From: Vulcanimicrobiota bacterium
GTDB taxonomy: Bacteria; Vulcanimicrobiota; Vulcanimicrobiia; Vulcanimicrobiales; Vulcanimicrobiaceae
DNA length: 64,000 bases
NCBI GenBank assembly: GCA_963714015.1
Contig: OY970223.1
Coordinates: 1,312,001-1,376,000 of the forward strand
Reading direction: 5' to 3'
In this document: positions 21,895-35,109 of the stretch, in pieces
Layout: each line of letters starts with the position of its first letter
Position numbering within the stretch: the stretch's first letter is position 1
Made by a program: the position numbers and the translations under genes
Notes under the pieces: model-generated
What the model was told of the DNA's origin: nothing
The model's input: only the letters and a program-made list of their open reading frames with translations
Databases searched by the model: none

Positions 21895-22365
21895 GTGCTC
21901 GACCCGACGAAACGTTTTCTCACCGCGATCTTGGCGCTGGGCATCATCGCCCTAATCGTCGGCATTGCTTTGGGTGAGCGCGCCGGCGATCGCGTGATCG
22001 GGCAAGTCACCGAGAAACGTTTGAACAGCATCGCGCCCATAACCGTTACACCTGCGCCGCCCCAGCAGAGCACCGCGCCGTACGGTCCGGACTGGAAACG
22101 GACCAGCGTGATGTCGGCGGCCTCGGACCCGATGTTTCCCGATCCGCGAGTACCGCCCAAGGCGCTGCCTACTCCGGCTCCGACGCCGAAGTACAAGCCG
22201 ACGGCTCCTCCGGCGGCTTCGCCGGAAGCTACGGCGACGCCGAATCTGAATCTGCCGATCTGGCGCCGGAATGCCCCGCTTCCTACCCCGACGCCTACTC
22301 CGGTCCCGGGTCCGAGCCTATTGCCGAACGGAGAACCGGTGGGCGAGCCCTCGACCCAGCCTTAG
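21895..22365 (+). CDS. Membrane-anchored Pro/Thr-rich hypothetical protein
   Basis: N-terminal TM helix, PTP repeats. Confidence 0.6.
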   Translation: MLDPTKRFLTAILALGIIALIVGIALGERAGDRVIGQVTEKRLNSIAPITVTPAPPQQSTAPYGPDWKRTSVMSAASDPMFPDPRVPPKALPTPAPTPKYKPTAPPAASPEATATPNLNLPIWRRNAPLPTPTPTPVPGPSLLPNGEPVGEPSTQP

Positions 22366-22484
22366 AGAGCGCAAGCTCCCTCGTTCGCAACCCGGACCGG
22401 CCGCAGGCGAGTTGTCCCCAATGTTCCCATTGGATTTGCCTGATATGATGGGATCACAACCGAAACATTTGAGGAGAATCGATC

Positions 22485-23384
22485 GTGGCCGAGGCGGCAA
22501 CCGGAACGACTACAGTAAAACGCGGGCTTGCGCAGATGCTTAAAGGCGGTGTCATCATGGATGTCGTCACCCCCGAACAAGCCGTCATCGCGCAAGAGGC
22601 GGGCGCCGTTGCGGTCATGGCCCTCGAGCGAATCCCCGCGGACATCCGCGCGATGGGCGGCGTCGCGCGCATGAGTAATCTCGAGCTGGTTCAGTCGATT
22701 ATGGACGCAGTCACGATTCCGGTCATGGCAAAAGTTCGCATCGGTCATTTTGCCGAGGCTCAAGCATTGCAAGAACTCGGCGTCGATTTCATCGACGAAT
22801 CGGAAGTGCTCACGCCCGCCGACGACAAGTACCACGTCGAAAAGCGCAAATACACGACGCCGTTCGTCTGCGGCGCGCGCGACCTCGGCGAAGCGCTCCG
22901 CCGTATCGCCGAAGGCGCTGCGATGATTCGCAGCAAGGGTGAAGCAGGCAGCGGCAACATCGTCGAGGCGGTGCGTCACATTCGCGCCATCACGGATTCG
23001 ATCAAAGAACTCACCGTCGTCCCGCATGAAGAACTGGTTGCGCGCGCCCGCGACATCGGCGCGCCCCTGGAGCTGGTTCAAGACGTTGCCGCGAACGGCC
23101 GTTTGCCCGTCGTGCTTTTCTGTGCGGGCGGCGTCTCGACGCCGGCCGATGCCGCGCTCATGATGCAGCTCGGCGCCGAGGGCATCTTCGTCGGAAGCGG
23201 CATCTTCAAGTCGAACAACCCCGCAAAGTTTGCAAAAGCCATCGTGGATGCGACGACACACTTCGGCGATCCCAAAGTGATCGTCGACGCGAGTAAGTCG
23301 CTCGGGAAAGAGGCTCAGGCAATGGAAGGGATCGACCTGCGCAAACTGCACGAATCGGAGCTCCTTGCGCCCCGCGGCAATTGA
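22485..23384 (+). CDS. pdxS: PLP synthase lyase subunit
   Basis: [41 protein letters not shown]. Confidence 0.98.
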
Positions 23385-23417
23385 CCCGGCGTTGCGCGGC
23401 GGAAGGGGTTGCTCGCT

Positions 23418-24035
23418 GTGACGAAGCCTGACGTCGGTGTGCTCGCACTGCAAGGCGACGTCGAAGAGCATATCGCTGCGATGCGCCGCGCCGGCGCCGA
23501 AGCGTTCGCAGTCAAGACGCATGCGGATCTCGAGCGCGCGGCGGGTCTCATCATTCCGGGCGGTGAGTCGACGACCGTAATGAAGCTGCTCGATCGCTTC
23601 GGCCTGGCCGCGCCGATCGCCGAGCGTGCCGGCTCCGGCATGCCGCTTTGGGGAACGTGCATGGGGATGATCGTCCTCGCTCACGAGGTGGTTGGACTGG
23701 CGCAGCCGACGCTCGACCTTATCGACATTTCGGTGCGACGCAACGCGTTCGGACGGCAGAACGATTCGGCGGAGGTCGACCTGCAAATTCCGGCGCTTGG
23801 GCAGCCGCCCTTTCCAGCGATATTCATCCGGGCTCCATGGATCGAACGGACCGGAAAAGACGTGAGTTTGCTGGCGCAGCGCAAGGGTCACGGGGTAATG
23901 GTGCGCCATGGCAACGTGCTGGGTACGTCGTTTCACCCGGAACTTACCGCCGACGCGCGCGTGCACGCCTATTTTTTGAACATGGTTCGCGAAGCCGGGG
24001 GCCGCAACGTAGGGAAGCAGCGAGAGGTCGCATAA
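23418..24035 (+). CDS. pdxT: PLP synthase glutaminase subunit
   Basis: GVLALQG, PGGESTT, GTC.G, RNAFGRQ, FIRAP, FHPEL. Confidence 0.97.
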   Translation: MTKPDVGVLALQGDVEEHIAAMRRAGAEAFAVKTHADLERAAGLIIPGGESTTVMKLLDRFGLAAPIAERAGSGMPLWGTCMGMIVLAHEVVGLAQPTLDLIDISVRRNAFGRQNDSAEVDLQIPALGQPPFPAIFIRAPWIERTGKDVSLLAQRKGHGVMVRHGNVLGTSFHPELTADARVHAYFLNMVREAGGRNVGKQREVA

Positions 24036-24048
24036 GTCTCGGACTACT

Positions 24049-24336
24049 ATGAGTTCGCAGGCTCCCACATGGGATCCGGAAACGATGGGCGATCAGATAC
24101 CTCCGATCGAGGTGCTGGTCACCGACGTGATTGCGCGGCTCGCGCTTGCAGCGCACGTCTACCTCAGCGATGTTGAAGAGATGCAGCCTGATTTGGGCTC
24201 CGCCGAAATGGCCATCGACGTGGCGAGTTCGGCCTTCGAACGGGTGAAAGAAAGGCTGAGGCCGGAAGAACGGTTGGCAATAACCCAATTGCTGACCGAA
24301 ACCCGAATGGCGTTCGTGAGGAAGCGAGGTTTATGA
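24049..24336 (+). CDS. Small helical hypothetical protein (DUF1844-like)
   Basis: DL..AEMAID and L.ETRMAFV pattern. Confidence 0.5.
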   Translation: MSSQAPTWDPETMGDQIPPIEVLVTDVIARLALAAHVYLSDVEEMQPDLGSAEMAIDVASSAFERVKERLRPEERLAITQLLTETRMAFVRKRGL

Positions 24337-24370
24337 TGCCTCGCTTTTCTTCATTTTTGGGAGGTTGTTT

Positions 24371-24901
24371 TTGAGCGACGTCTTGGTGCTGAACTTCACC
24401 TACGAGGCGCTGAACATCACCAACTTTCAGCGCGCCGTCAAATTGATTTTCGCCGGCAAGGCGGAGCTCGTCCACGGGCAAGAGCGCGTCATTTGCTCGA
24501 CGACGTTCGAGATGCGCATGCCGTCGATCATCCGCATGCTGTATTACATAAAGCGTCCGATGCAAAAGGTCGCGTTGACCAAGAAGAACATCCTGATCCG
24601 CGATGACCACACGTGCCAATACTGCGGACTGCGCGGCGATCGGTTCATGACCGTTGATCACGTGTTGCCCCGAAGCAAAGGCGGCCCCTCGACCTGGGAA
24701 AATTTGGCCTGCGCCTGCATGCGCTGCAACAACCGCAAGAACAATCGCACGCCCGACGACGCCAACATGAAGCTCAAGCGTAAACCGCGTCAGCCCAAGT
24801 ACATTCCGTGGATTCAGGTCAAGCGCAACACGCTTCCGGACGAGTGGCACAAGTTCTTATTCCTTTACAACGTTTCGATCGACGAACGGGTCGAGAGTTG
24901 A
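24371..24901 (+). CDS. HNH endonuclease (McrA-like, Zn-binding)
   Basis: VLVLN..YE, RD.HTCQYCG, TVDHVLPRSKGG, WENL.CAC..CN..K. Confidence 0.92.
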   Translation: MSDVLVLNFTYEALNITNFQRAVKLIFAGKAELVHGQERVICSTTFEMRMPSIIRMLYYIKRPMQKVALTKKNILIRDDHTCQYCGLRGDRFMTVDHVLPRSKGGPSTWENLACACMRCNNRKNNRTPDDANMKLKRKPRQPKYIPWIQVKRNTLPDEWHKFLFLYNVSIDERVES

Positions 24902-25996: not shown

Positions 25997-26005
25997 CGCA
26001 GACCG

Positions 26006-27795
26006 TCAGACTCCACTGACGGCCTGCGCTTGCGTTTGAGAGCCCTCGAAATGGGCCTCGATTTCTTCGAGCGTCTTGCCTTTGCTCTCGGGCATGAAGA
26101 ACGCCGCGGTCACGAAGTAGATTACGGTAAACGCCGCAAACGCAAAGAACATAACGGCGTATCCGTGGCGCGCGACAGTCGGTAGGAATATGGCCGCGAT
26201 CGTCGTGGACGTAGCTTGGTTCAGCACCAGTGCGATGCTCATCCCGTTCGAGCGAATTCGCGTCGGCAGCAGCTCGGACATCGCCAGCCACACGACGACG
26301 CCGGGGCCCACGGCGTAGAAACCCATGAACAGGTACAGCATTACGGCCACGAGCCAGCCGTTTGCCGCGCTCGGAACGGGCGTGACGAATGCGGCGTCGA
26401 TCGTCAGCGGCGCCTTTCTCGCCGCCTCCAAGCTGCTCGTGTTGAAGTTCTCAAAAAACGCTTCGATCTGACTGCCCGGCAAGAACGAGCGATCGATCGT
26501 GACGGACGGAGTGGTCTTGTCGTCGGATCGAACCGTGTTCGTGGCCGTGCCGTAGCTGCCATAGCGATAGACTACGGTTAATGTCTGGGGCTGACCGTTC
26601 GAAGACTTGCCGGCGCTTGCTAAGAGTTTGCCGGCCGTCGCCTGGTCGAATCTGAACGTTGCGGTCTGATTGCCTTTCATCATGGCTTGCACGGCGCGCG
26701 AGACGTCGACGTGCTGCGCTTCAGTGCGATGAAAGATGATGCCGGTCGCAATCATCGACAAAATGATGCCGCCCGTTCCGAGCGTGAGTAAGAACTTGCG
26801 GCCCTTGCGGTCGACCAGGATCACGGCGATCAGGGTCACCAAGAAATTCACCCAGCTGAAGATAAAGCTGCCGAAGTGCGCCCAGTAATCGTTCAGGCCG
26901 GCTTGGAGAAGTATCGTCGTATTGTACGGGATGATCGAGTTGATTCCGGTGAGCTGATTGCAGGTAAGGATCACGCACGCGATGACGAACGGAATCACGT
27001 ACTTGCGGCGCATCAGTGACGCGCGGACTTGAGACCCCGCTGAAGCTCGCTGGGCGCTCTCCGCAGCCGACGTCGCCTCCATCTCGGCGAGCTCGCTCCG
27101 GGCCTGCCGTTCGTCGCGCGACCGAAGCAGGGCGGCAAGCGCGGCGTTCTTGTTTCCGCGCCGGAACAACCATCGAGGCGACTCCGCCAAGAAGAAACCG
27201 CCCACGACAAATAAGATGCCGAAGGGCAGCGATATCCAAAATGTTTCCCGCCACGCGTGATCTTTGAACGCAAAGACGTGCGCCGCGTTTCCGCTCGCCG
27301 AAACGGCTGCGAGCCGATTGCTCAAATACAGCGTGATGAGACTGGAGACCACGAAGCCGAACGTCAACAGCCACTGGAACATGCCGGTGCCCTTGCCGCG
27401 ATCTTTGGCGCTCAAACATTCGGCCAAATAGAGCGGCACGACCACGCCGATGAGTCCGGCACTCATGCCTTGCAAGAGCCGCCCGGCTACGAGTTCGTTG
27501 AATCCGTGTGAAAGCGCGATGATCGGAACGCTGGCGCAGAACATGATCGCGGTGACGATCATCAGCCACTTGCGGCCGAACCAGTCGGAAAGCAAGCCGG
27601 CAAAGAGCGTGGAGAGGACGCTGCCGAGCAGCACCGCCGCTACGACAATCGAAAGCTGTCCCGGCGAGAAGCCCGACGTTGCCGTCAGATAAGGCAGCGC
27701 GCCTTGAATGATTCCGACGTCGATGCCGTACAGCAAGCCGCCGAGTCCGGCGACGAGCAGCAAGAGGCGGTTGTACGTGATTCTATTCGTGGCCG
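26006..27795 (-). CDS. Sugar porter family MFS transporter with large soluble loop (start region frameshifted)
   Basis: GGLLYGIDVG, DWFGRK, YLAE, ESPRW, QLTGIN, DRKGRK, PESKGKTLEEI. Confidence 0.93.
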
Positions 27796-27809
27796 TGACC
27801 CCTCAATAG

Positions 27810-27848
27810 AAAAACAAAGCCAGTCCGGGTCGTCCGACCCTACTGGCT
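27810..27848 (-). promoter_or_regulatory. Leader hairpin plus U-tract, copy 1
   Basis: agccagt-a-gggtc-ggac-gaccc-gg-actggct-ttgttttt directly before the GAGGGG SD of the sugar porter. Confidence 0.7.
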
Positions 27849-27910
27849 AGGAGACAAACGATTCGTTCGCCCGCAAGCAAACCCTTTGTCATTTGCGCGG
27901 CGCGTGTACT

Positions 27911-29059
27911 CTACGGCTGCAGCGTATTGAGCAGCGAGTTTTGCGCGTCGTCCTCGCCGAGCACCCAGAACATCGTCCCTCGAAGATGCTGCGCGCGAGC
28001 AAAGGCGGCTTTGATCGCCATCGATCGCGGATCGTCGTAACTGAAGAAGACGTGTTCGCGCGCGTTGTAAATCCACGGCGCCTGCGCAGTGTCGCTCCAG
28101 TGCTTCTGCCAAGCCGGGTTCGTGAGCATCTTGCTCTTTACCGCCGCATAGGGCGTTTCGTCGAAGATGCCGTTGAATCTCGAGTACAGTCCAGCGTTTT
28201 TGGACGCAACGTTGCGGAATCCGCGGCCGTAGAACGCCATTCCGAGCACGATCTTGTCCGCGGGTACGCCGTGCGCCTCGAAGTATTTCACCGCGCCGGA
28301 GAGGTTGTTCCAGCGCCGCTCCAGCCCGGGCGTCGGGTCGTTGGGGTCCGGATATAGCGGGTCGTTGAAATTGCTGTACGGTGAAAAGATGTTGTTCATG
28401 TCGTACGTCATCACGTCGATCCAGTCGACGGTGCGCGCGACTGCGGCAAGATCATAGCTGTTCCTGGGGTCGTACGGGCCGCCGGTCTGCCACCGGCCGG
28501 CCGGGATCGCAATGGTCAAGTAATACCGGCGATGCGTGCGCGAACTCAAGGCGTGGAGCTGCGAGCGAATCTCGCGAAGCAGCGCCGTCGCGTCCGAGCG
28601 ATCCTGCGGCCGGTTGTGCATGATCGTGTCGCCGCCGTGCACGGGAAACTCCCAGTCGATGTCTATCCCTTCGAGATCCTGACCGGCGACGTATTGCTGA
28701 ATGCACGTGCGCGCAAAAGCGGCACGCGAGGCTGGCGTCAGCGCAACGTCCGAGTAGTTCGGGGCCGCACCCCAACCGCCGATCGAAAGCGTCACGTGCA
28801 GGTTCGGATGCGCCGCGCGCAAGGCACGCAACTGCGCAAAATCAGCGCGCTGCTTGGCCGAAGGAGCGTGACAGGTGTTATCTGCCGCCGGTTCGGCAAA
28901 GGCATAGATGACGTTCGTGAGCTCCGCCGCCGGTATCTTCGCAACCGGGATCTCACCGGAGTAGTAGCCCGCCACAACGGGTTCTGCGCGGACCGGCGGC
29001 GTCGCCGCGCACGTCAGGAATGCGAGGAGAGCGGCGATTGCCGCGACTGATCTTTGCAT
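27911..29059 (-). CDS. Secreted GH18 chitinase
   Basis: Signal peptide; SIGGW, GIDIDWEFP catalytic DxDxE, MTYD, FYGR, SYDD. Confidence 0.95.
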   Translation of the reverse strand: MQRSVAAIAALLAFLTCAATPPVRAEPVVAGYYSGEIPVAKIPAAELTNVIYAFAEPAADNTCHAPSAKQRADFAQLRALRAAHPNLHVTLSIGGWGAAPNYSDVALTPASRAAFARTCIQQYVAGQDLEGIDIDWEFPVHGGDTIMHNRPQDRSDATALLREIRSQLHALSSRTHRRYYLTIAIPAGRWQTGGPYDPRNSYDLAAVARTVDWIDVMTYDMNNIFSPYSNFNDPLYPDPNDPTPGLERRWNNLSGAVKYFEAHGVPADKIVLGMAFYGRGFRNVASKNAGLYSRFNGIFDETPYAAVKSKMLTNPAWQKHWSDTAQAPWIYNAREHVFFSYDDPRSMAIKAAFARAQHLRGTMFWVLGEDDAQNSLLNTLQP

Positions 29060-29124
29060 CGTTATGCCGCTCCTGAGGCGTGCCGAGTTTTGCGAACCGG
29101 CTTCGCCGCCGATCGCGAACATCA

Positions 29125-29153
29125 TTGACGACGCGAGCGAGACCGTGTACGAT
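29125..29153 (+). promoter_or_regulatory. Sigma70-type promoter
   Basis: TTGACG-17 nt-TACGAT. Confidence 0.65.
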
Positions 29154-29161
29154 GTAACGCA

Positions 29162-29201
29162 AGCCAGTAGGGACGGACGCCCCGGACTGGCTTTTATTTT
29201 T
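29162..29201 (+). promoter_or_regulatory. Leader hairpin plus U-tract, copy 2
   Basis: agccagt-a-gggac-ggac-gcccc-gg-actggct-tttattttt; 29/31 identical to copy 1. Confidence 0.7.
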
Positions 29202-29377
29202 GCCGAGTTCTTCGTAGAATTTGCGGAGGGACGTATGCTTTGGAGCCTCGGTTTGGGCTCGAGCGGTCAAGCCGACATTTCGGTATCGCCCGCAACGACC
29301 GGGACGTACTAGCTTCCAGCCGTGTGCAGCAACCGCGCGCCCATCCATCTCCGGATGGGTGAGCGCTGCCGGAGAAC

Positions 29378-30064
29378 GTGAAAGAAATGCAGCTCGAAGT
29401 GCTCGTGACCGATGCCGCCGAGGCGGTAACGGCGCAGCAAGCCGGTGCGACGCGGATCGAACTCGTGAGCGATCGCGAAAAGGGCGGCCTTACCCCGGCC
29501 GCGCACACGATTCAAGCTGCGGTCAATGCGGTTTCGATCCCCATTCACGCGATCGTTCGCCCCCACGATAACGGCTTCGTCTACGATCGCGCGCAGCGCA
29601 AGGAAATCTTGGCGGGCGCAGCTCGCCTGCGCGACTTGGGCGCTTGCGGCATCGTGTTTGGAGTGCTCGATCGCATGGCCCACGTCGACGTGGAGTTCGT
29701 GCAGGAGGTGGTGGGCGTGAGCCGGCTGCCCATGACGTTTCACCGTGCCTTCGACGCGACGCCGAGTTTGAGCGCGAGCTACGCCACGCTGGCCGCAATC
29801 GAGGGCGTCGCGCGCGTTCTAACGTCGGGGGGCGCCCATTCCGCCTGGGAGGGACGCGTTCTTCTGCGGGAGCTCTGCTGCGGGAACACGGCGCCGTCGA
29901 TCATCGCGGGCGGCGGAATCGACGGCTCGAATCTGCAGGAGCTGCTGCAATTCACGGGGCTGCGCGAGGTGCACGTCGGGAACGGCGCGCGCAGCGGCGG
30001 CAGGTTGGACGCTCGGAAGATCGAGCAGATGGCGCGCCTGCTCCACGCGCGAAATCAGCGCTGA
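29378..30064 (+). CDS. cutC: CutC family TIM-barrel protein
   Basis: RIEL....GGLTP, RP...GFVY, GIVFG.L, TFHRAFD, RVLTSGG, AGGGI. Confidence 0.9.
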   Translation: MKEMQLEVLVTDAAEAVTAQQAGATRIELVSDREKGGLTPAAHTIQAAVNAVSIPIHAIVRPHDNGFVYDRAQRKEILAGAARLRDLGACGIVFGVLDRMAHVDVEFVQEVVGVSRLPMTFHRAFDATPSLSASYATLAAIEGVARVLTSGGAHSAWEGRVLLRELCCGNTAPSIIAGGGIDGSNLQELLQFTGLREVHVGNGARSGGRLDARKIEQMARLLHARNQR

Positions 30065-30077
30065 CGGAGGTACGAGC

Positions 30078-31100
30078 ATGCGCGGAAAAGTACCCGCATC
30101 TGATATGCTTGGCGTGAACTTCGAGCGCGAGATCGGAGAGCAGCCCGACGTTTGGAAACGCATTGCCGAATCGGACAAGGCGCAAACGCTCGCAGGGGCA
30201 ATTCGCGATCGCGATGTCGTCTTAATCGGAACGGGCAGCTCGCTCTGCATGGCGCAGCTGGGCGCTCTCGCGCTGCGGCGGCGCGGAATCAACGCGCACG
30301 CGCTTTCTGCAACGGAGAGCGTTCTCGACAACGTCGCCTACCGGCACGCAGCCGTAATTGCGTGTTCGCAAAGCGGCCAGTCGAAAGATCTGCTCGACGC
30401 GCTGGACATCATCGAGCCCAAGCAACTCATAGCACTCACCAATACGCCGGAGTCTCCGCTAGGCGAGCGCGCCACGCTCTGCATCGACGTGGGATCCGGT
30501 CCGGAAATTGCGGTACCGGCGAGCAAGAGCGTAACCGCGACCGCCGCGATTCTGCTATGGGCAGCCGGTCTGATGTCCGGCAGTCACGGGCGCAACGCGA
30601 AGTCGCTGATCGAAACGGCCGAAGACGTGCGCGCGTGGCTCGACAGCAGCGGCGTAGAAGACGTGCGCGACGCGGCTCGACGCATCTCGCGCCGGCGAAG
30701 CGTGATCATCGCATCCACGGGGTACGGCTTACCGGTTGCCTTTGAGTTTGCGCTCAAACTGAAGGAAGCCAGTTACATTCACGCGGAGGGATTCAGCGCC
30801 GGCGAGTTCCGGCACGGAAGCGCCGCGATGCTCGACGCGAGCTGTGCGATCGTCGGCATCTGCGATCAGACGTCGCGGCAGATCGTCAACCGGCCGCTCG
30901 TCGAAGCCGCCGAAGCAGAAGCGCTGCGCTACGTGGTCGGCGCGCATCTGGGCGACATTCCGCTGCTGGGGCCGGTGCTGAGCGAACCCTTCAACACGCT
31001 GGGCTGGCTCGTTGCCGGGCAAGTCTTGGCGCTGCAGCTCGGGAGGGCGCGCTACGTCGAAAGCGACGCGCCTCGCGGTCTCATGAAGGCGATGGTCTAG
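30078..31100 (+). CDS. Double-SIS sugar isomerase/deaminase (GlmS C-terminal-like, probable NagB-II)
   Basis: EI.EQP, GTGSS, SQSG, ALKLKE, GEFRHG, PRGLMK; no glutaminase domain. Confidence 0.85.
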   Translation: MRGKVPASDMLGVNFEREIGEQPDVWKRIAESDKAQTLAGAIRDRDVVLIGTGSSLCMAQLGALALRRRGINAHALSATESVLDNVAYRHAAVIACSQSGQSKDLLDALDIIEPKQLIALTNTPESPLGERATLCIDVGSGPEIAVPASKSVTATAAILLWAAGLMSGSHGRNAKSLIETAEDVRAWLDSSGVEDVRDAARRISRRRSVIIASTGYGLPVAFEFALKLKEASYIHAEGFSAGEFRHGSAAMLDASCAIVGICDQTSRQIVNRPLVEAAEAEALRYVVGAHLGDIPLLGPVLSEPFNTLGWLVAGQVLALQLGRARYVESDAPRGLMKAMV

Positions 31101-31156: not shown

Positions 31157-32389
31157 GTGCCCAAAACCCGGCTCGGCAGCCTGTGGCTGCCGTTCACACA
31201 AATGAACGGATTCGACCCTGCTTCGCGCACGTTCGTGCGCGCAGAGGGGAATTATCTCTTCGATTCGGCCGGGAAGCGCTTCTTCGATGCCGTCAGCTCG
31301 ATTTGGACGACCGTTCACGGTCATTGTCACCCCGTAATCGTCGATGCCATCGCGCGGCAAGCAGCTACGCTCGATCATGCTACGCTGCTTGGAGCCGTTC
31401 ATCCGCGCGCCGAAGAGCTGGCCGATCGTCTGACGCGGCTGCTGCGGCTCGACTACGCATTCTTCTCCGGAGACGGCGCCAGCGCGTTGGAGGCGGCGCT
31501 CAAGATGGCGCTGCAATATTGGCGATCCGCCGGAGAGCCGCAGCGCACGCGTTTCGTACGGCTCGTTCATTCGTACCACGGCGATACTGCCGGCGCGATG
31601 AGCATCTCCGATATCGACGCGTTCAAAAACAACTTCGGCGCCGTAACGTTTGAATCGCTGCCCTACGACCAGGACGAGTCCGTGCTGCAGCGCGGCGACG
31701 TTGCGGCAATTATCGTTGAACCGATCGTGCAGGCCGCAGCGGGATTGCGTATGGTGCCCTCGGAGCGGTACGCGCGCCTGCACGATATTCAGCCGCTGCT
31801 GATCGTCGACGAGATCGCAACGGGCTTTGGGCGCACCGGCGCCATGTTCGCGCACGAGCAATTGTCTTTAAAACCGGACATCGTGTGCGCCGGTAAAGGG
31901 TTAACCGGCGGCACGCTGGCGCTGTCGGCCACCGTGGTGAGCGATCGGATCTATGAAGCGTTTTTGGGCGAACCGTCGCTGGGGAAGCAATTTTTCCACG
32001 GGCACTCGTTTGCGGGAAACCCCATTGCCTGCGCAGCGGCGATCGCTTCGATCGACCTTTTCGAGCAAGAACGAACGCTCGAGCACGTTGCGCTCGTAAC
32101 GCAAGCCATTGCACCCGCGCTGACGGCGCTGAGCTACCATCCGGCCGTGCGCGAAGTGCGCCGCTCGGGAATGATGATCGGCATCGAGTTGAACGTCGAT
32201 CGAATTCCCTGCGAGGGTCATGCGACGCCCGCCTGGCGCATCGCAAGCGATCTTTATGAAGCGGGTCACTTCACCCGGCCCATCGGCGAGGTCATTCAGC
32301 TCGTTCCGCCGCTCTCGAGCACGGCCGAAGAATTACGCGAGTTTTTGGACGCGCTCTGCGCGGTGCTCCCCCATCGGAACGTTTCTTGA
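31157..32389 (+). CDS. bioA: DAPA aminotransferase
   Basis: LWLPFTQM, SSIW..VHGH, YHGDT, DEIATGFGRTG, HGHSF.GNP. Confidence 0.95.
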   Translation: MPKTRLGSLWLPFTQMNGFDPASRTFVRAEGNYLFDSAGKRFFDAVSSIWTTVHGHCHPVIVDAIARQAATLDHATLLGAVHPRAEELADRLTRLLRLDYAFFSGDGASALEAALKMALQYWRSAGEPQRTRFVRLVHSYHGDTAGAMSISDIDAFKNNFGAVTFESLPYDQDESVLQRGDVAAIIVEPIVQAAAGLRMVPSERYARLHDIQPLLIVDEIATGFGRTGAMFAHEQLSLKPDIVCAGKGLTGGTLALSATVVSDRIYEAFLGEPSLGKQFFHGHSFAGNPIACAAAIASIDLFEQERTLEHVALVTQAIAPALTALSYHPAVREVRRSGMMIGIELNVDRIPCEGHATPAWRIASDLYEAGHFTRPIGEVIQLVPPLSSTAEELREFLDALCAVLPHRNVS

Positions 32390-33483
32390 GCGGTTATCTG
32401 CGCAAAGCCGAAGAGGCGCTGCGGTCGATTCGTGAGGCGGGACGTTATCGCGCACTTGAAGCGGGCCGCCCCGCGTACGCGGCGGACTTTTCGACGAACG
32501 ATTATCTTGCGCTCTCGACTGATTCACGTATGGTCGAAGCGGTGCGCCGTGCCGACGCCGTCGGTTCCGGCGGCGCCCGCCTTCTAGGCGGTCGCCATCG
32601 CGAGCATTATCTGCTCGAACAAGAGATCGCTGCGTGGCTGGGCCGCGAGCGGGCGCTGTTGTTTTCCTCGGGTTACCTGGCTGCATTGGGCGCGGTCCAG
32701 GTGCTCGCGAATCTGTGCGGCTCGATTTACTCGGACGCGCTCAACCATGCTTGCCTGATCGACGGCATCCGCGCCTCGAGAAAGCCGCATGACGTTTATG
32801 CGCACTTGCAACTTCCGGAGCTTGCGTTGCGGCGGCGCGGTTCCCTGATCGTCAGTGAGTCGCTGTTCGGCATGGACGGGGACACTGCGGACGTAAGTGC
32901 CATGCTTGGAGAACTTGGTGATGGCGACGTGCTCCTCTTAGACGAAGCGCATGCGCTCGGCATTCTGGGCCCGCAGGGCGCCGGGGCGGCTCACGGCATC
33001 GTGGACGATCGCATCGTCGTTCTAGGTACGCTGGGGAAGGCAGTCGGTGCAGCGGGCGGATTTATCGCCGGTCCTGCCGTCCTTATCGAACTGCTGGTGA
33101 ATCAAGCGCGCACGTTCATTTTTGATACGGCACTTCCGCCGGCGCTGGCCTTTGCTGCGCGTGTGGGAATCATGCTTGCGCGCAGCGCAGACGACCGGCG
33201 CGAACGGCTCAAGAGCAACGTCTTGCGGCTGCACGCCGGATTGCGGGAGCTGCGATTGAGCGTTCCGCAAAAACCTGTGCCGATCGTTCCGGTGTTCGCC
33301 GGCGACGAGTACGAGGCGATGCGCTTGATGCAGCGGTGCTTGGAGTGCGGCGTCTACGCTCCGGCGGTACGCCCGCCCACGGTTCCGCCGGGAACCTCAC
33401 GATTGCGTCTTTCGGTGCGCGCGGATCACACGCAGGAACAGATCGCGCTCTTCCTGGATCGACTGGCATGCAGCGTTACTTGA
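32386..33483 (+). CDS. bioF: 8-amino-7-oxononanoate synthase
   Basis: NDYLAL, LNHACLIDG, DEAHA, GTLGKA, VRPPTVP. Confidence 0.95.
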   Translation: MSGYLRKAEEALRSIREAGRYRALEAGRPAYAADFSTNDYLALSTDSRMVEAVRRADAVGSGGARLLGGRHREHYLLEQEIAAWLGRERALLFSSGYLAALGAVQVLANLCGSIYSDALNHACLIDGIRASRKPHDVYAHLQLPELALRRRGSLIVSESLFGMDGDTADVSAMLGELGDGDVLLLDEAHALGILGPQGAGAAHGIVDDRIVVLGTLGKAVGAAGGFIAGPAVLIELLVNQARTFIFDTALPPALAFAARVGIMLARSADDRRERLKSNVLRLHAGLRELRLSVPQKPVPIVPVFAGDEYEAMRLMQRCLECGVYAPAVRPPTVPPGTSRLRLSVRADHTQEQIALFLDRLACSVT

Positions 33484-34112
33484 TCACCGGCACCGATACG
33501 GACGTCGGTAAGACTCGAGTTACCGCAGCGTTTGCCAATGCGCTGCGCATCGCCGGACAGAATCCGACGATCGTCAAACTGGTCCAGACGGGACTGGCTC
33601 CAGGTGTTCCGGGTGATGCGGTACGCGCGGGGACGCTTGCGCAATGCCGCTATGTCGAACTCGCCCGATTTCGCAAACCTGCCGATCCTTGGTCGGCGGC
33701 GCTGACCGAAGGAATGCCGACGGTGCGCGCCGAGGATCTTGCGGGCGCGCTGAACGGAATTCCGGGTTCCGTTGTAGCCGAGGGCGCCGGCGGTTTGGCG
33801 GTGCCGCTGAACCGGCTGCAGAACTTCGGGACGGTCGCCTTATGCGCAAAACTGCGCGTGCTCTTAGCGATCGGCTTGCGCCTCGGGTGCATGAATCATG
33901 CGCTGCTCACGCTGGCGCTCTGCGATCAATTGCGCGTCCCCGTAGCGGGCGGCATCCTGGTCGAGCGCTGGGAAAAGACGGACCCCTCATACGCCGCCGA
34001 CGTAGCGCGCGCGCTGCAGGGAAAACTCGAGATTCTTGGCATTGTGCCGTTTAATCCAAACGAGACCGCCTCGGTCGAGGAAGCCGCGCAGCTCTTCGTC
34101 CCGCTGCTATAA
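33468..34112 (+). CDS. bioD: Dethiobiotin synthase
   Basis: ITGTDTDVGKT, K.VQTG, EGAGGL.VP, LGCMNHALLT. Confidence 0.95.
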   Translation: MQRYLITGTDTDVGKTRVTAAFANALRIAGQNPTIVKLVQTGLAPGVPGDAVRAGTLAQCRYVELARFRKPADPWSAALTEGMPTVRAEDLAGALNGIPGSVVAEGAGGLAVPLNRLQNFGTVALCAKLRVLLAIGLRLGCMNHALLTLALCDQLRVPVAGGILVERWEKTDPSYAADVARALQGKLEILGIVPFNPNETASVEEAAQLFVPLL

Positions 34113-34125
34113 GGAAAGACGGACC

Positions 34126-35109
34126 TTGAGTCACCCCGCTATCGAAAGCGCACGCGAACGCGTGTTGAACCGGCGCTCGGCTGCCGGCCGGCAGCTGCTT
34201 GGATCGCTCGCCGAGATGCCCGCGCAGCACGTCACCGCTCTCCTGGCTTTAGCAAACGAAGTGCGCGGCGCCTACTGTGGTGACGGCGTGGCCGTCGAAG
34301 TGCTCTACAACGCGAAAAAAGGCGGCTGTTCCGAAGACTGCAATTTCTGTTCGCAAAGCGCGCGCTTTGCTTCCGGCGTGGATCCCGAACCGCTCAGCAG
34401 CGTCGAAGGCTTTCTTGAAGCCGCGCGCGATGCGCACGAGCGGGGCGCCGGCGAGCTCTGCATCGTCGTCGCGGTGCGCGGTCCGTCGGCTAAGCTGCTC
34501 GAGCGCGTCTGCACGGCAGTTCCGCTGATCAAGGAACGTTACCCGCTCACTGTGGCCGTTTCACTGGGGATTCTGCGTGAGGATCAACTCATGCAGCTCT
34601 GCCGGGCGGGCGTGGATAAGGTCAACCACAACCTCGAAACGTCGCGCCGGTATTTTCCGTCGGTCTGCACGACGCACAGCTATGACGAACGTTGGGAGAC
34701 GTGCCGGCTCGTCAAGCGGCACGATCTGCAGCTCTGCTGCGGCGGTATCATCGGCATGGGGGAGACGCTCGAGGATCGCTTGGATTTTTTGGAGTCGCTG
34801 CAGCTCTTGGAGCCGGACGAGGTGCCGGTGAATTTTCTCAATCCGCGGCCCGGCACGCCGTTCGGCGATCGGGCGCTGCTGGATCCGATTGAAGCGCTGC
34901 GCTTTGTCGCAATGGCTAGGCTCGCGCTCCCCAAGGCGTTAATCCGCTTTGCCGGCGGCCGTGAAGTAACGCTGCAAGGCCTTCAGGATCTCGGAATGCG
35001 CAGCGGTGCGAGCGGCATCGTCCTCGGCAACTATCTCACCACGGCCGGACGCAGCGATAGCGACGACTTCGCGATGCTCGATCGCCTCGGCTTCGAGATT
35101 CTGAGCTAA
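34126..35109 (+). CDS. bioB: Biotin synthase
   Basis: CSEDCNFCSQ radical SAM motif, NHNLET, CCGGIIGMGE, VPVNFL, RFAGGR, GNYLTT. Confidence 0.96.
   Translation: MSHPAIESARERVLNRRSAAGRQLLGSLAEMPAQHVTALLALANEVRGAYCGDGVAVEVLYNAKKGGCSEDCNFCSQSARFASGVDPEPLSSVEGFLEAARDAHERGAGELCIVVAVRGPSAKLLERVCTAVPLIKERYPLTVAVSLGILREDQLMQLCRAGVDKVNHNLETSRRYFPSVCTTHSYDERWETCRLVKRHDLQLCCGGIIGMGETLEDRLDFLESLQLLEPDEVPVNFLNPRPGTPFGDRALLDPIEALRFVAMARLALPKALIRFAGGREVTLQGLQDLGMRSGASGIVLGNYLTTAGRSDSDDFAMLDRLGFEILS

Follow-up and report, generated by a model that had tools for sequence, protein, structure and literature searches.

A conserved terminator-like hairpin in the leaders of GlcNAc-glycan utilisation genes of a Vulcanimicrobiota bacterium: a candidate attenuator RNA

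Introduction

Protein-mediated antitermination at leader terminators is known from BglG, SacY and LicT, which act with a ribonucleic antiterminator (RAT), from GlpP at glpD and from HutP at hut; the protein in these systems binds either to a hairpin with a bulge or to the 5′ portion of the terminator. A different arrangement is represented by the hydroxymethylpyrimidine pyrophosphate (HMP-PP) riboswitch, or thiS motif, an aptamer embedded in a terminator with a conserved loop and one associated gene set; it has a second, covariation-supported fold that breaks the base of the stem and a proven ligand (PMC6478431). Here we describe a 31-nucleotide (nt) hairpin followed directly by a U-tract that occurs twice in a 64,000-nt stretch of DNA (hereafter the window) from a Vulcanimicrobiota bacterium (assembly GCA_963714015.1, contig OY970223.1, positions 1,312,001 to 1,376,000). 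A sequence-only reading of the window had proposed the hairpin as a new attenuator or RNA motif in a chitin and amino-sugar locus. That proposal is partly borne out, in that the element is rare, unmatched in Rfam, conserved and tied to glycan-use genes, and the evidence supports a candidate new regulon-specific leader RNA or attenuator; two accompanying points, a small open reading frame (ORF) behind the second copy and binding by a CsrA-like protein, fare less well.

The element resembles the BglG, GlpP and HutP systems in belonging to a sugar or catabolite regulon and in placing a terminator between promoter and first gene. It departs from them in that the conserved hairpin is the terminator itself and stands at the 5′ end of the RNA in several leaders. 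Leaders of the receptor type (those that precede, or in the window once preceded, a TonB-type receptor gene) have no separate RAT upstream, with only 1–3 nt of RNA predicted before the hairpin, and neither CAT_RBD nor a GlpP homologue was found in the genome that holds the window. The element and the thiS motif have in common a terminator stem with U-run, an unusually conserved loop, a single functional gene set and a very compact form, whereas ours differs in that no alternative fold was found, in its catabolic gene set, in a far narrower distribution and in having no match in Rfam; among terminators that act as their own sensor, the HMP-PP riboswitch would on this comparison be the nearest precedent (PMC6478431). 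The GC-rich stem (−15 to −23 kcal/mol) and immediate U-tract are those of an intrinsic (Rho-independent) terminator, but here conservation across genera extends to the sequence, the internal loop and the loop, and the position is in leaders rather than at the 3′ end of a transcription unit. With repetitive extragenic palindromes (REPs) and the bacterial interspersed mosaic elements that they form, the hairpin shares an imperfect extragenic palindrome with GTAG by the inner stem. REPs, however, number from tens to hundreds per genome and face both ways, whereas the present element has three copies, each directed toward a glycan-use gene and preserved at the orthologous sites of other species.

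The two copies in the window

The features on which the following account depends are these:

27808..27848, minus strand: copy 1, hairpin (27848->27818) and U-tract (27817->27808)
29125..29153, plus strand: sigma-70-like promoter TTGACG-17-TACGAT, ending 8 nt before copy 2
29162..29202, plus strand: copy 2, hairpin (29162-29192, with A.C at pair 12/19) and U-tract (29193-29202)

The pattern AGCCAGTAGGGNCGGACGNCCCGGACTGGCT matches the window exactly twice, at 27818-27848 (minus strand) and 29162-29192 (plus strand), and matches none of 100 shuffled sequences. Positions 12 and 19, opposite one another in the predicted fold, are the sole difference between the copies, with U-A in copy 1 and A.C in copy 2. 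Folded alone, each 31-mer forms 7 bp, a 1x2 internal loop (A versus GG), 5 bp and a GGAC loop, with predicted folding energies of −19.9 kcal/mol (copy 1) and −15.4 kcal/mol (copy 2) that no shuffle equals; the A.C mismatch opens two inner pairs in copy 2. A T-tract comes directly behind each copy, on the same strand as the downstream gene (TTGTTTTTC and TTTATTTTTG). Pattern search and folding agree with the sequence-only reading, which had reported two hairpins with U-tracts that differ by one base pair.

Copy 1 lies 62 nt past the stop codon of a GH18 glycosidase gene and 27 nt ahead of the likely start of a gene for a sugar porter of the major facilitator superfamily (MFS). Copy 2 forms the predicted 5′ end of a cutC-SIS transcript. 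The promoter that the sequence-only reading had placed ahead of it, TTGACG-17-TACGAT, is the sole sigma-70-like site in 27600-29500 (0.2 expected), and its predicted transcript start falls 1–2 nt ahead of the hairpin.

Copies in related genomes

The window lies in a genome of 3.56 Mb (G000; one contig, 89.6% complete) that was compared with a sister species (G001), a genus-level relative (G037), a further genome (G107) and a metagenome contig (L042). Eight confident copies are known, from G000, G001, G037 and L042. At equivalent places in the sister species (two copies, 2.8 kb apart), in the other genus (one copy) and on the metagenome contig, the hairpin is identical at 27–31 of 31 nt. The three copies from G001 and G037 equal those of the window except at pair 12/19, which is G-U, C-G or U-A, and in the L042 copy pair 2/30 has switched from G-C to A-U.

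The counterpart of copy 2 precedes a TonB-type receptor gene in the sister species, in G037 and on the metagenome contig, where the downstream ORF is cut off, and in all three it is divergent from a GH18 gene. The receptor is 1215–1232 amino acids long in G001 and G037, with CarboxypepD_reg and Plug domains, and is followed there by a lipoprotein gene, CutC and SIS. The second G001 copy stands ahead of the porter gene, as in the window. A further feature of these loci is the fusion of CutC and SIS into one 562-aa ORF in G037 (L007 14437-16125, plus strand), which argues that CutC works with the SIS enzyme in amino-sugar metabolism.

A covariance model built from five copies gave one further match in G000 and one in G001. 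Copy 3 of G000 lies outside the window (C1:3256013-3256052, minus strand), 33 nt upstream of a PNGase A gene, and reads AACUAGU-A-GAGCC-GGAC-GGCUC-GG-CUAGUU before its U-tract; pairs 2/30, 4/28, 10/21 and 12/19 are altered on both sides, and A8, the G(G) bulge and the GGAC loop are retained. The third G001 copy, AGCCGGU-A-GGGGC-CUGC-GCCCC-GG-ACCGGCU with a U-tract, precedes a CBM5/12-GH18 chitinase gene. A hairpin in G107 (34–53 bits) retains the GGAC loop, though not the A/GG internal loop, and precedes an unannotated ORF; as a copy it is doubtful. The G001 PNGase A gene, whose product is 49% identical to that of G000, likewise has an upstream hairpin with a U-tract in the same 7 / 1x2 / 5 / 4 architecture (L064 3394-3432, minus strand), which may be a decayed or retargeted copy. 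The predicted energies of the seven confident copies that were folded run from −15.4 to −23.1 kcal/mol (the doubtful G107 hairpin, −16.3), with at most 2 of 200 shuffles as stable; together with at least three U directly past the stem, these values fit an efficient intrinsic terminator.

Conservation and covariation

In an alignment of four leaders, 27 of the 31 hairpin columns are invariant and the four variable columns make up two base pairs, against a mean column identity of 59% over the whole alignment. The neighbouring proteins are 49–71% identical (CutC 71% and 61%, PNGase A 49%, lipoprotein 52%). When eight sequences are aligned, 98.9% of the cells pair and both-sided changes are found in 7 of 12 pairs, which none of 500 shuffles reaches; controls with slid partners are 24–53% paired. 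This alignment (A4) and a second covariance model (R2) include the doubtful G107 hairpin. Without it there are still five covarying pairs (2/30, 4/28, 5/27, 10/21 and 12/19); pair 7/25 is supported by G107 alone, which also adds a pair type at 9/22, 10/21 and 12/19.

Pair 12/19 takes the forms U-A, G-U, C-G and A.C across the copies. The diverged copies retain the unpaired A and GG and, for the most part, the GGAC loop. Within G000, copies 1 and 2 have AGCCAGT arms and copy 3 has AACTAGT arms; that the arms differ within one genome, yet always on both sides, fits selection for pairing and not recognition by one DNA-binding protein. The pattern is that of an element under selection as RNA. Searching relatives and building a covariance model, the check that the sequence-only reading had itself named, has thus placed the element at equivalent leaders with compensatory changes.

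Position and gene association

The U-tract follows the stem directly in all eight confident copies, on the gene-facing strand only, and in all eight the U-tract and the GG side point toward the downstream gene. Five of the eight lie between divergent genes and cannot therefore be 3′ terminators of an upstream gene; the other three lie behind a co-directional gene, encoding the GH18 enzyme (62 nt), an AMP-binding enzyme (~65 nt) or an esterase (~470 nt). Seven stand ahead of genes with glycan-use domains, which encode an MFS porter, a TonB-type receptor, CutC-SIS, PNGase A or a chitinase; downstream of the eighth is a truncated signal-peptide ORF that is divergent from a GH18 gene.

A sigma-70-like promoter ends 6–8 nt before the hairpin in three of five leaders scanned, with none called in the other two, and -10-like boxes 7–10 nt upstream were noted by eye in all five. 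From a promoter at such a distance the RNA would begin with the hairpin. Three receptor-type leaders also carry an A-tract (6–9 A) 45–55 nt upstream of the hairpin (L006 9100-9160, L007 9440-9470 and L042 190-215), which resembles a promoter UP element and is missing from the leader of window copy 2.

Rarity and distribution

G000 holds three copies in 3.56 Mb and the element is not REP-like, which bears out the sequence-only reading on a point that could have told against it. Allowing up to three mismatches, or any 13–21-nt filling between the outer arms, recovered only copies 1 and 2 from this genome. A scan for shape alone returned 22 hairpins, with A/G(G) and GGAC together only in the known copies; no GGAC loop was found among 313 simple terminator-like hairpins of G000, and among 45 GGAC-looped stems with a nearby T-tract none resembles the element beyond the known copies. 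A cmscan of 26000-31000 against Rfam 15, whose families include the glmS ribozyme, guanidine-II, the ANTAR target and thiS, gave no match to the element at E<=10, again as the sequence-only reading would have it; the only match in that interval was a chance s2m elsewhere (17.3 bits, against a gathering score of 50).

The conserved form is present in 3 of 348 family genomes, and its known bearers are a few uncultured bacteria of soil. The first covariance model gave matches in 6 of 151 family genomes, three of them weak, and model R2, run over 151 genomes across the phylum, gave nothing convincing beyond G000 (one 28.9-bit match, E 0.0087). A 21-nt core was found at 18 loci in 185,579 species genomes, with outer stem and T-tract only at three loci on two Baltobacteraceae contigs; the other 15, which have neither outer stem nor T-tract, were rejected as chance matches. 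Scanning metagenomes yielded one contig (L042). Of 151 family genomes, 10 have CutC homologues, and six other CutC loci of the family (74 kb, filters off) have no copy, the best match scoring 16.9 bits. On this distribution across family, phylum and species genomes the element is young and narrow. No description of it appeared in literature listings on Eremiobacterota and chitin, on Baltobacteraceae, on N-acetylglucosamine (GlcNAc) attenuators or on chitinase-linked structured RNAs.

A putative leader attenuator

The hairpin and U-tract lie between the promoter and the start codon of units for uptake or breakdown of GlcNAc-containing glycans, namely the MFS porter, the TonB-type receptor-lipoprotein-CutC-SIS unit, PNGase A and, in the sister species, the CBM5/12-GH18 chitinase. 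We put at about even the chance that the element acts as an attenuator RNA, a leader terminator specific to this regulon, with read-through controlled by a trans-acting factor. The hairpin would be transcribed at about +1 to +31, and at about +40, with the U-tract complete, RNA polymerase would by default stop; the genes would be expressed only when the trans-acting factor blocks termination. The likeliest factor would be an RNA-binding protein that reads the 5′ arm (..RGUAGRG..), the unpaired purines and the loop of the emerging RNA, and such a protein might respond to an amino sugar or chito-oligomer. In receptor-type leaders the hairpin stands 0–3 nt from the predicted start, which leaves no upstream RNA for a classical antiterminator, so that the decision must fall on the terminator hairpin itself. 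Binding of a protein to the emerging 5′ arm, bulge and loop would explain why the sequence of the stem is conserved and not merely its pairing.

A bolder proposal, possible but clearly the less likely of the two, is that the 31-nt hairpin at the extreme 5′ end of the mRNA would be the complete switch for an N-glycan/chitin regulon with no separate antiterminator, either as a sensor terminator, with a minimal embedded aptamer for an amino-sugar metabolite, or as the target of a new antiterminator family of the Eremiobacterota.

Several observations weigh against regulated read-through by a trans-acting factor. No regulator gene was found in the loci of the window or of the relatives. In G000, at 89.6% completeness, CAT_RBD (PF03123) gave 0 matches, with a control that matched 4 of 14 known genomes; no GlpP homologue was found, and there is only one NusG. 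ANTAR (PF03861) gave no match in G000 either, but its control matched no genome. No alternative antiterminator fold was found. The A.C pair of copy 2 would be G-U on the opposite strand, and pair 12/19 therefore gives no strand information there. The G001 PNGase A hairpin has U/CC and an AGAU loop instead, which means that the unpaired bases are not conserved everywhere. The copies are few and come from related sources (3 of 348 family genomes and one metagenome contig), and the eight-sequence covariation alignment was fitted to the model with the G107 row included, so that the case from covariation is somewhat overstated. A look for sequencing runs linked to 26000-31100 of the window brought up three soil DNA runs from one study and no RNA run.

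Proteins of 391 and 407 aa in the sister species were considered as regulators and rejected, being secreted lipoproteins. ANTAR targets are dual hexaloop hairpins, and the element is a single tetraloop hairpin. No pseudoknot or alternative fold that uses GGAC was seen by eye.

Alternative explanations

Sensing could lie in the hairpin itself, if it were a terminator-embedded aptamer that binds glucosamine 6-phosphate (GlcN6P), N-acetylglucosamine 6-phosphate, uridine diphosphate-GlcNAc or chitobiose and alters termination in the manner of thiS. We think this unlikely. Two marks of the thiS motif are shared, these being an unusually conserved loop within a classic terminator and a gene association confined to one set (PMC6478431). 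Most copies moreover conserve the purine-rich 1x2 internal loop and the loop. Yet no alternative aptamer configuration that breaks the base of the stem was found, just 1–3 nt of RNA lie ahead of the hairpin, there is no Rfam family match, one copy has CUGC as its loop and a related hairpin has AGAU, and a ligand-stabilised hairpin would turn catabolic genes off, which is odd for an inducer. At 31 nt, the element is also smaller than any riboswitch of which we know. Little weight, too, goes to a role without termination control, in which the hairpin would stabilise the 5′ end of the mRNA or, as a CsrA/GGA-binding translation site, bridge loop and Shine-Dalgarno sequence, with the U-tract as a translation enhancer. 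The predicted position, 0–3 nt from the 5′ end in receptor-type leaders, is one at which 5′ stem-loops protect mRNAs, but a stabiliser could do without an invariant sequence and without a U-tract right past the stem, such as all eight copies have, and the porter and PNGase copies are probably not 5′-terminal because no promoter-like site adjoins them. In favour of a translation site, GGA is present in the 3′ bulge and in the loop of seven of the eight copies, GGAC recurs at the Shine-Dalgarno sequence of three receptor-type leaders, and the genome has one csrA gene. Against it, that sole csrA lies among flagellin genes, one loop is without GGA, and the porter and PNGase leaders have no GGAC at the Shine-Dalgarno sequence. 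On the first two of these points, the suggestion of the sequence-only reading that a CsrA-like protein could bind the GGA loop is weak. The CsrA domain occupies residues 159–210 of a 248-aa open frame (L043 1384-2130, minus strand) with flagellin genes on either side; this frame may reflect a FliW-CsrA arrangement or may have been called too long.

It is equally improbable that the 31-bp near-palindrome is a DNA operator, with a dimeric repressor bound at +1 to +31 and the RNA hairpin as a by-product. Near-invariance across genera is typical of operators, the site just downstream of a -10 box is a classic repressor position, and the arms ACTGG/CCAGT resemble half of a DasR/NagR-type site. The arms are not, however, the same half-site throughout one genome: they change jointly from AGCCAGT to AACTAGT, which selection for pairing accounts for but a single repressor does not. 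The element is also asymmetric (A versus GG, and a one-sided U-tract) and directed toward the gene in 8 of 8 copies; copy 1 has no adjoining promoter-like site, and the loci have no regulator gene. Least probable of all, and to our minds very unlikely, is that these are everyday terminators or insulators under no regulation, or else a REP-like palindrome of low copy number, with a likeness that stems from recent duplication or gene conversion. Shape and U-tract fit a plain terminator, three of the eight copies lie behind a co-directional gene, AGCC...GGCTTT stems occur also in a plain 3′ terminator of the sister species, and GTAG adjoins a palindrome in REPs as it does here. But no co-directional gene lies upstream of five of the eight copies, the flanks are far less alike across genera than the element is, the genome has only three copies, all ahead of glycan-use genes, and an efficient unregulated terminator just past the promoter would silence the operon.

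The window locus and its genes

The genes around the two copies are as follows:

26006..27790, minus strand: MFS sugar-porter gene (listed ORF start TTG 27763)
27911..29060, minus strand: GH18 glycosidase gene, chitinase- or endo-beta-N-acetylglucosaminidase-like (lipoprotein-type start ATG 29060)
29203..29377, plus strand: deletion scar, from sequence match to the receptor and lipoprotein genes of relatives
29378..30064, plus strand: CutC-family gene
30078..31100, plus strand: SIS-domain gene, like the GlmS isomerase domain or a NagB-II-type GlcN6P deaminase

The neighbours named by the sequence-only reading (MFS sugar porter, GH18, CutC and SIS) were all recovered, with the GH18 gene divergent from the cutC promoter. 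The small ORF behind copy 2 (ATG 29235) was considered as a leader peptide and rejected, since it is the orphaned start of a receptor gene in a deletion scar. Over the ~50 nt that follow copy 2, the sequence matches the leader and start of the TonB-type receptor gene of the relatives, and 29256-29365 matches the end of their lipoprotein gene. By this comparison ~4.7 kb, with the receptor and lipoprotein genes that are present in G001 and G037, is lost from G000, and the receptor leader is now joined directly to cutC.

At the start of the porter gene an ACG (27790-27788, minus strand) stands where the sister species has ATG, 8 nt past a GAGGGG Shine-Dalgarno sequence; the next canonical start, TTG 27763, has no Shine-Dalgarno sequence. 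The ACG could be a non-canonical start, a sequencing error or the sign of a weakened gene. Biotin synthesis genes (bioA-, bioF-, bioD- and bioB-like; 31157-35109, plus strand) follow on the same strand 56 nt past the SIS gene.

Downstream of the porter, two minus-strand ORFs, 22362-24068 (568 aa) and 24164-24850 (228 aa), were considered as conserved unknown genes and rejected as antisense artefacts; the genuine genes there, all on the plus strand, are the following:

22485-23384, plus strand: pdxS
23409-24035, plus strand: pdxT
24049-24336, plus strand: DUF1844 gene
24365-24901, plus strand: HNH endonuclease gene

Implications

If the attenuator proposal is correct, the element would be a new cis-regulatory RNA, and would come from a phylum of which hardly any members are in culture and from which we know of no RNA regulators. 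Its design would be unusually compact, a 5′-terminal terminator hairpin that is itself recognised, in 41 nt. The element would also define an N-glycan/chitin regulon that comprises GH18, PNGase A, the TonB-type receptor, CutC-SIS and the MFS porter, and would link CutC-family proteins to amino-sugar catabolism.

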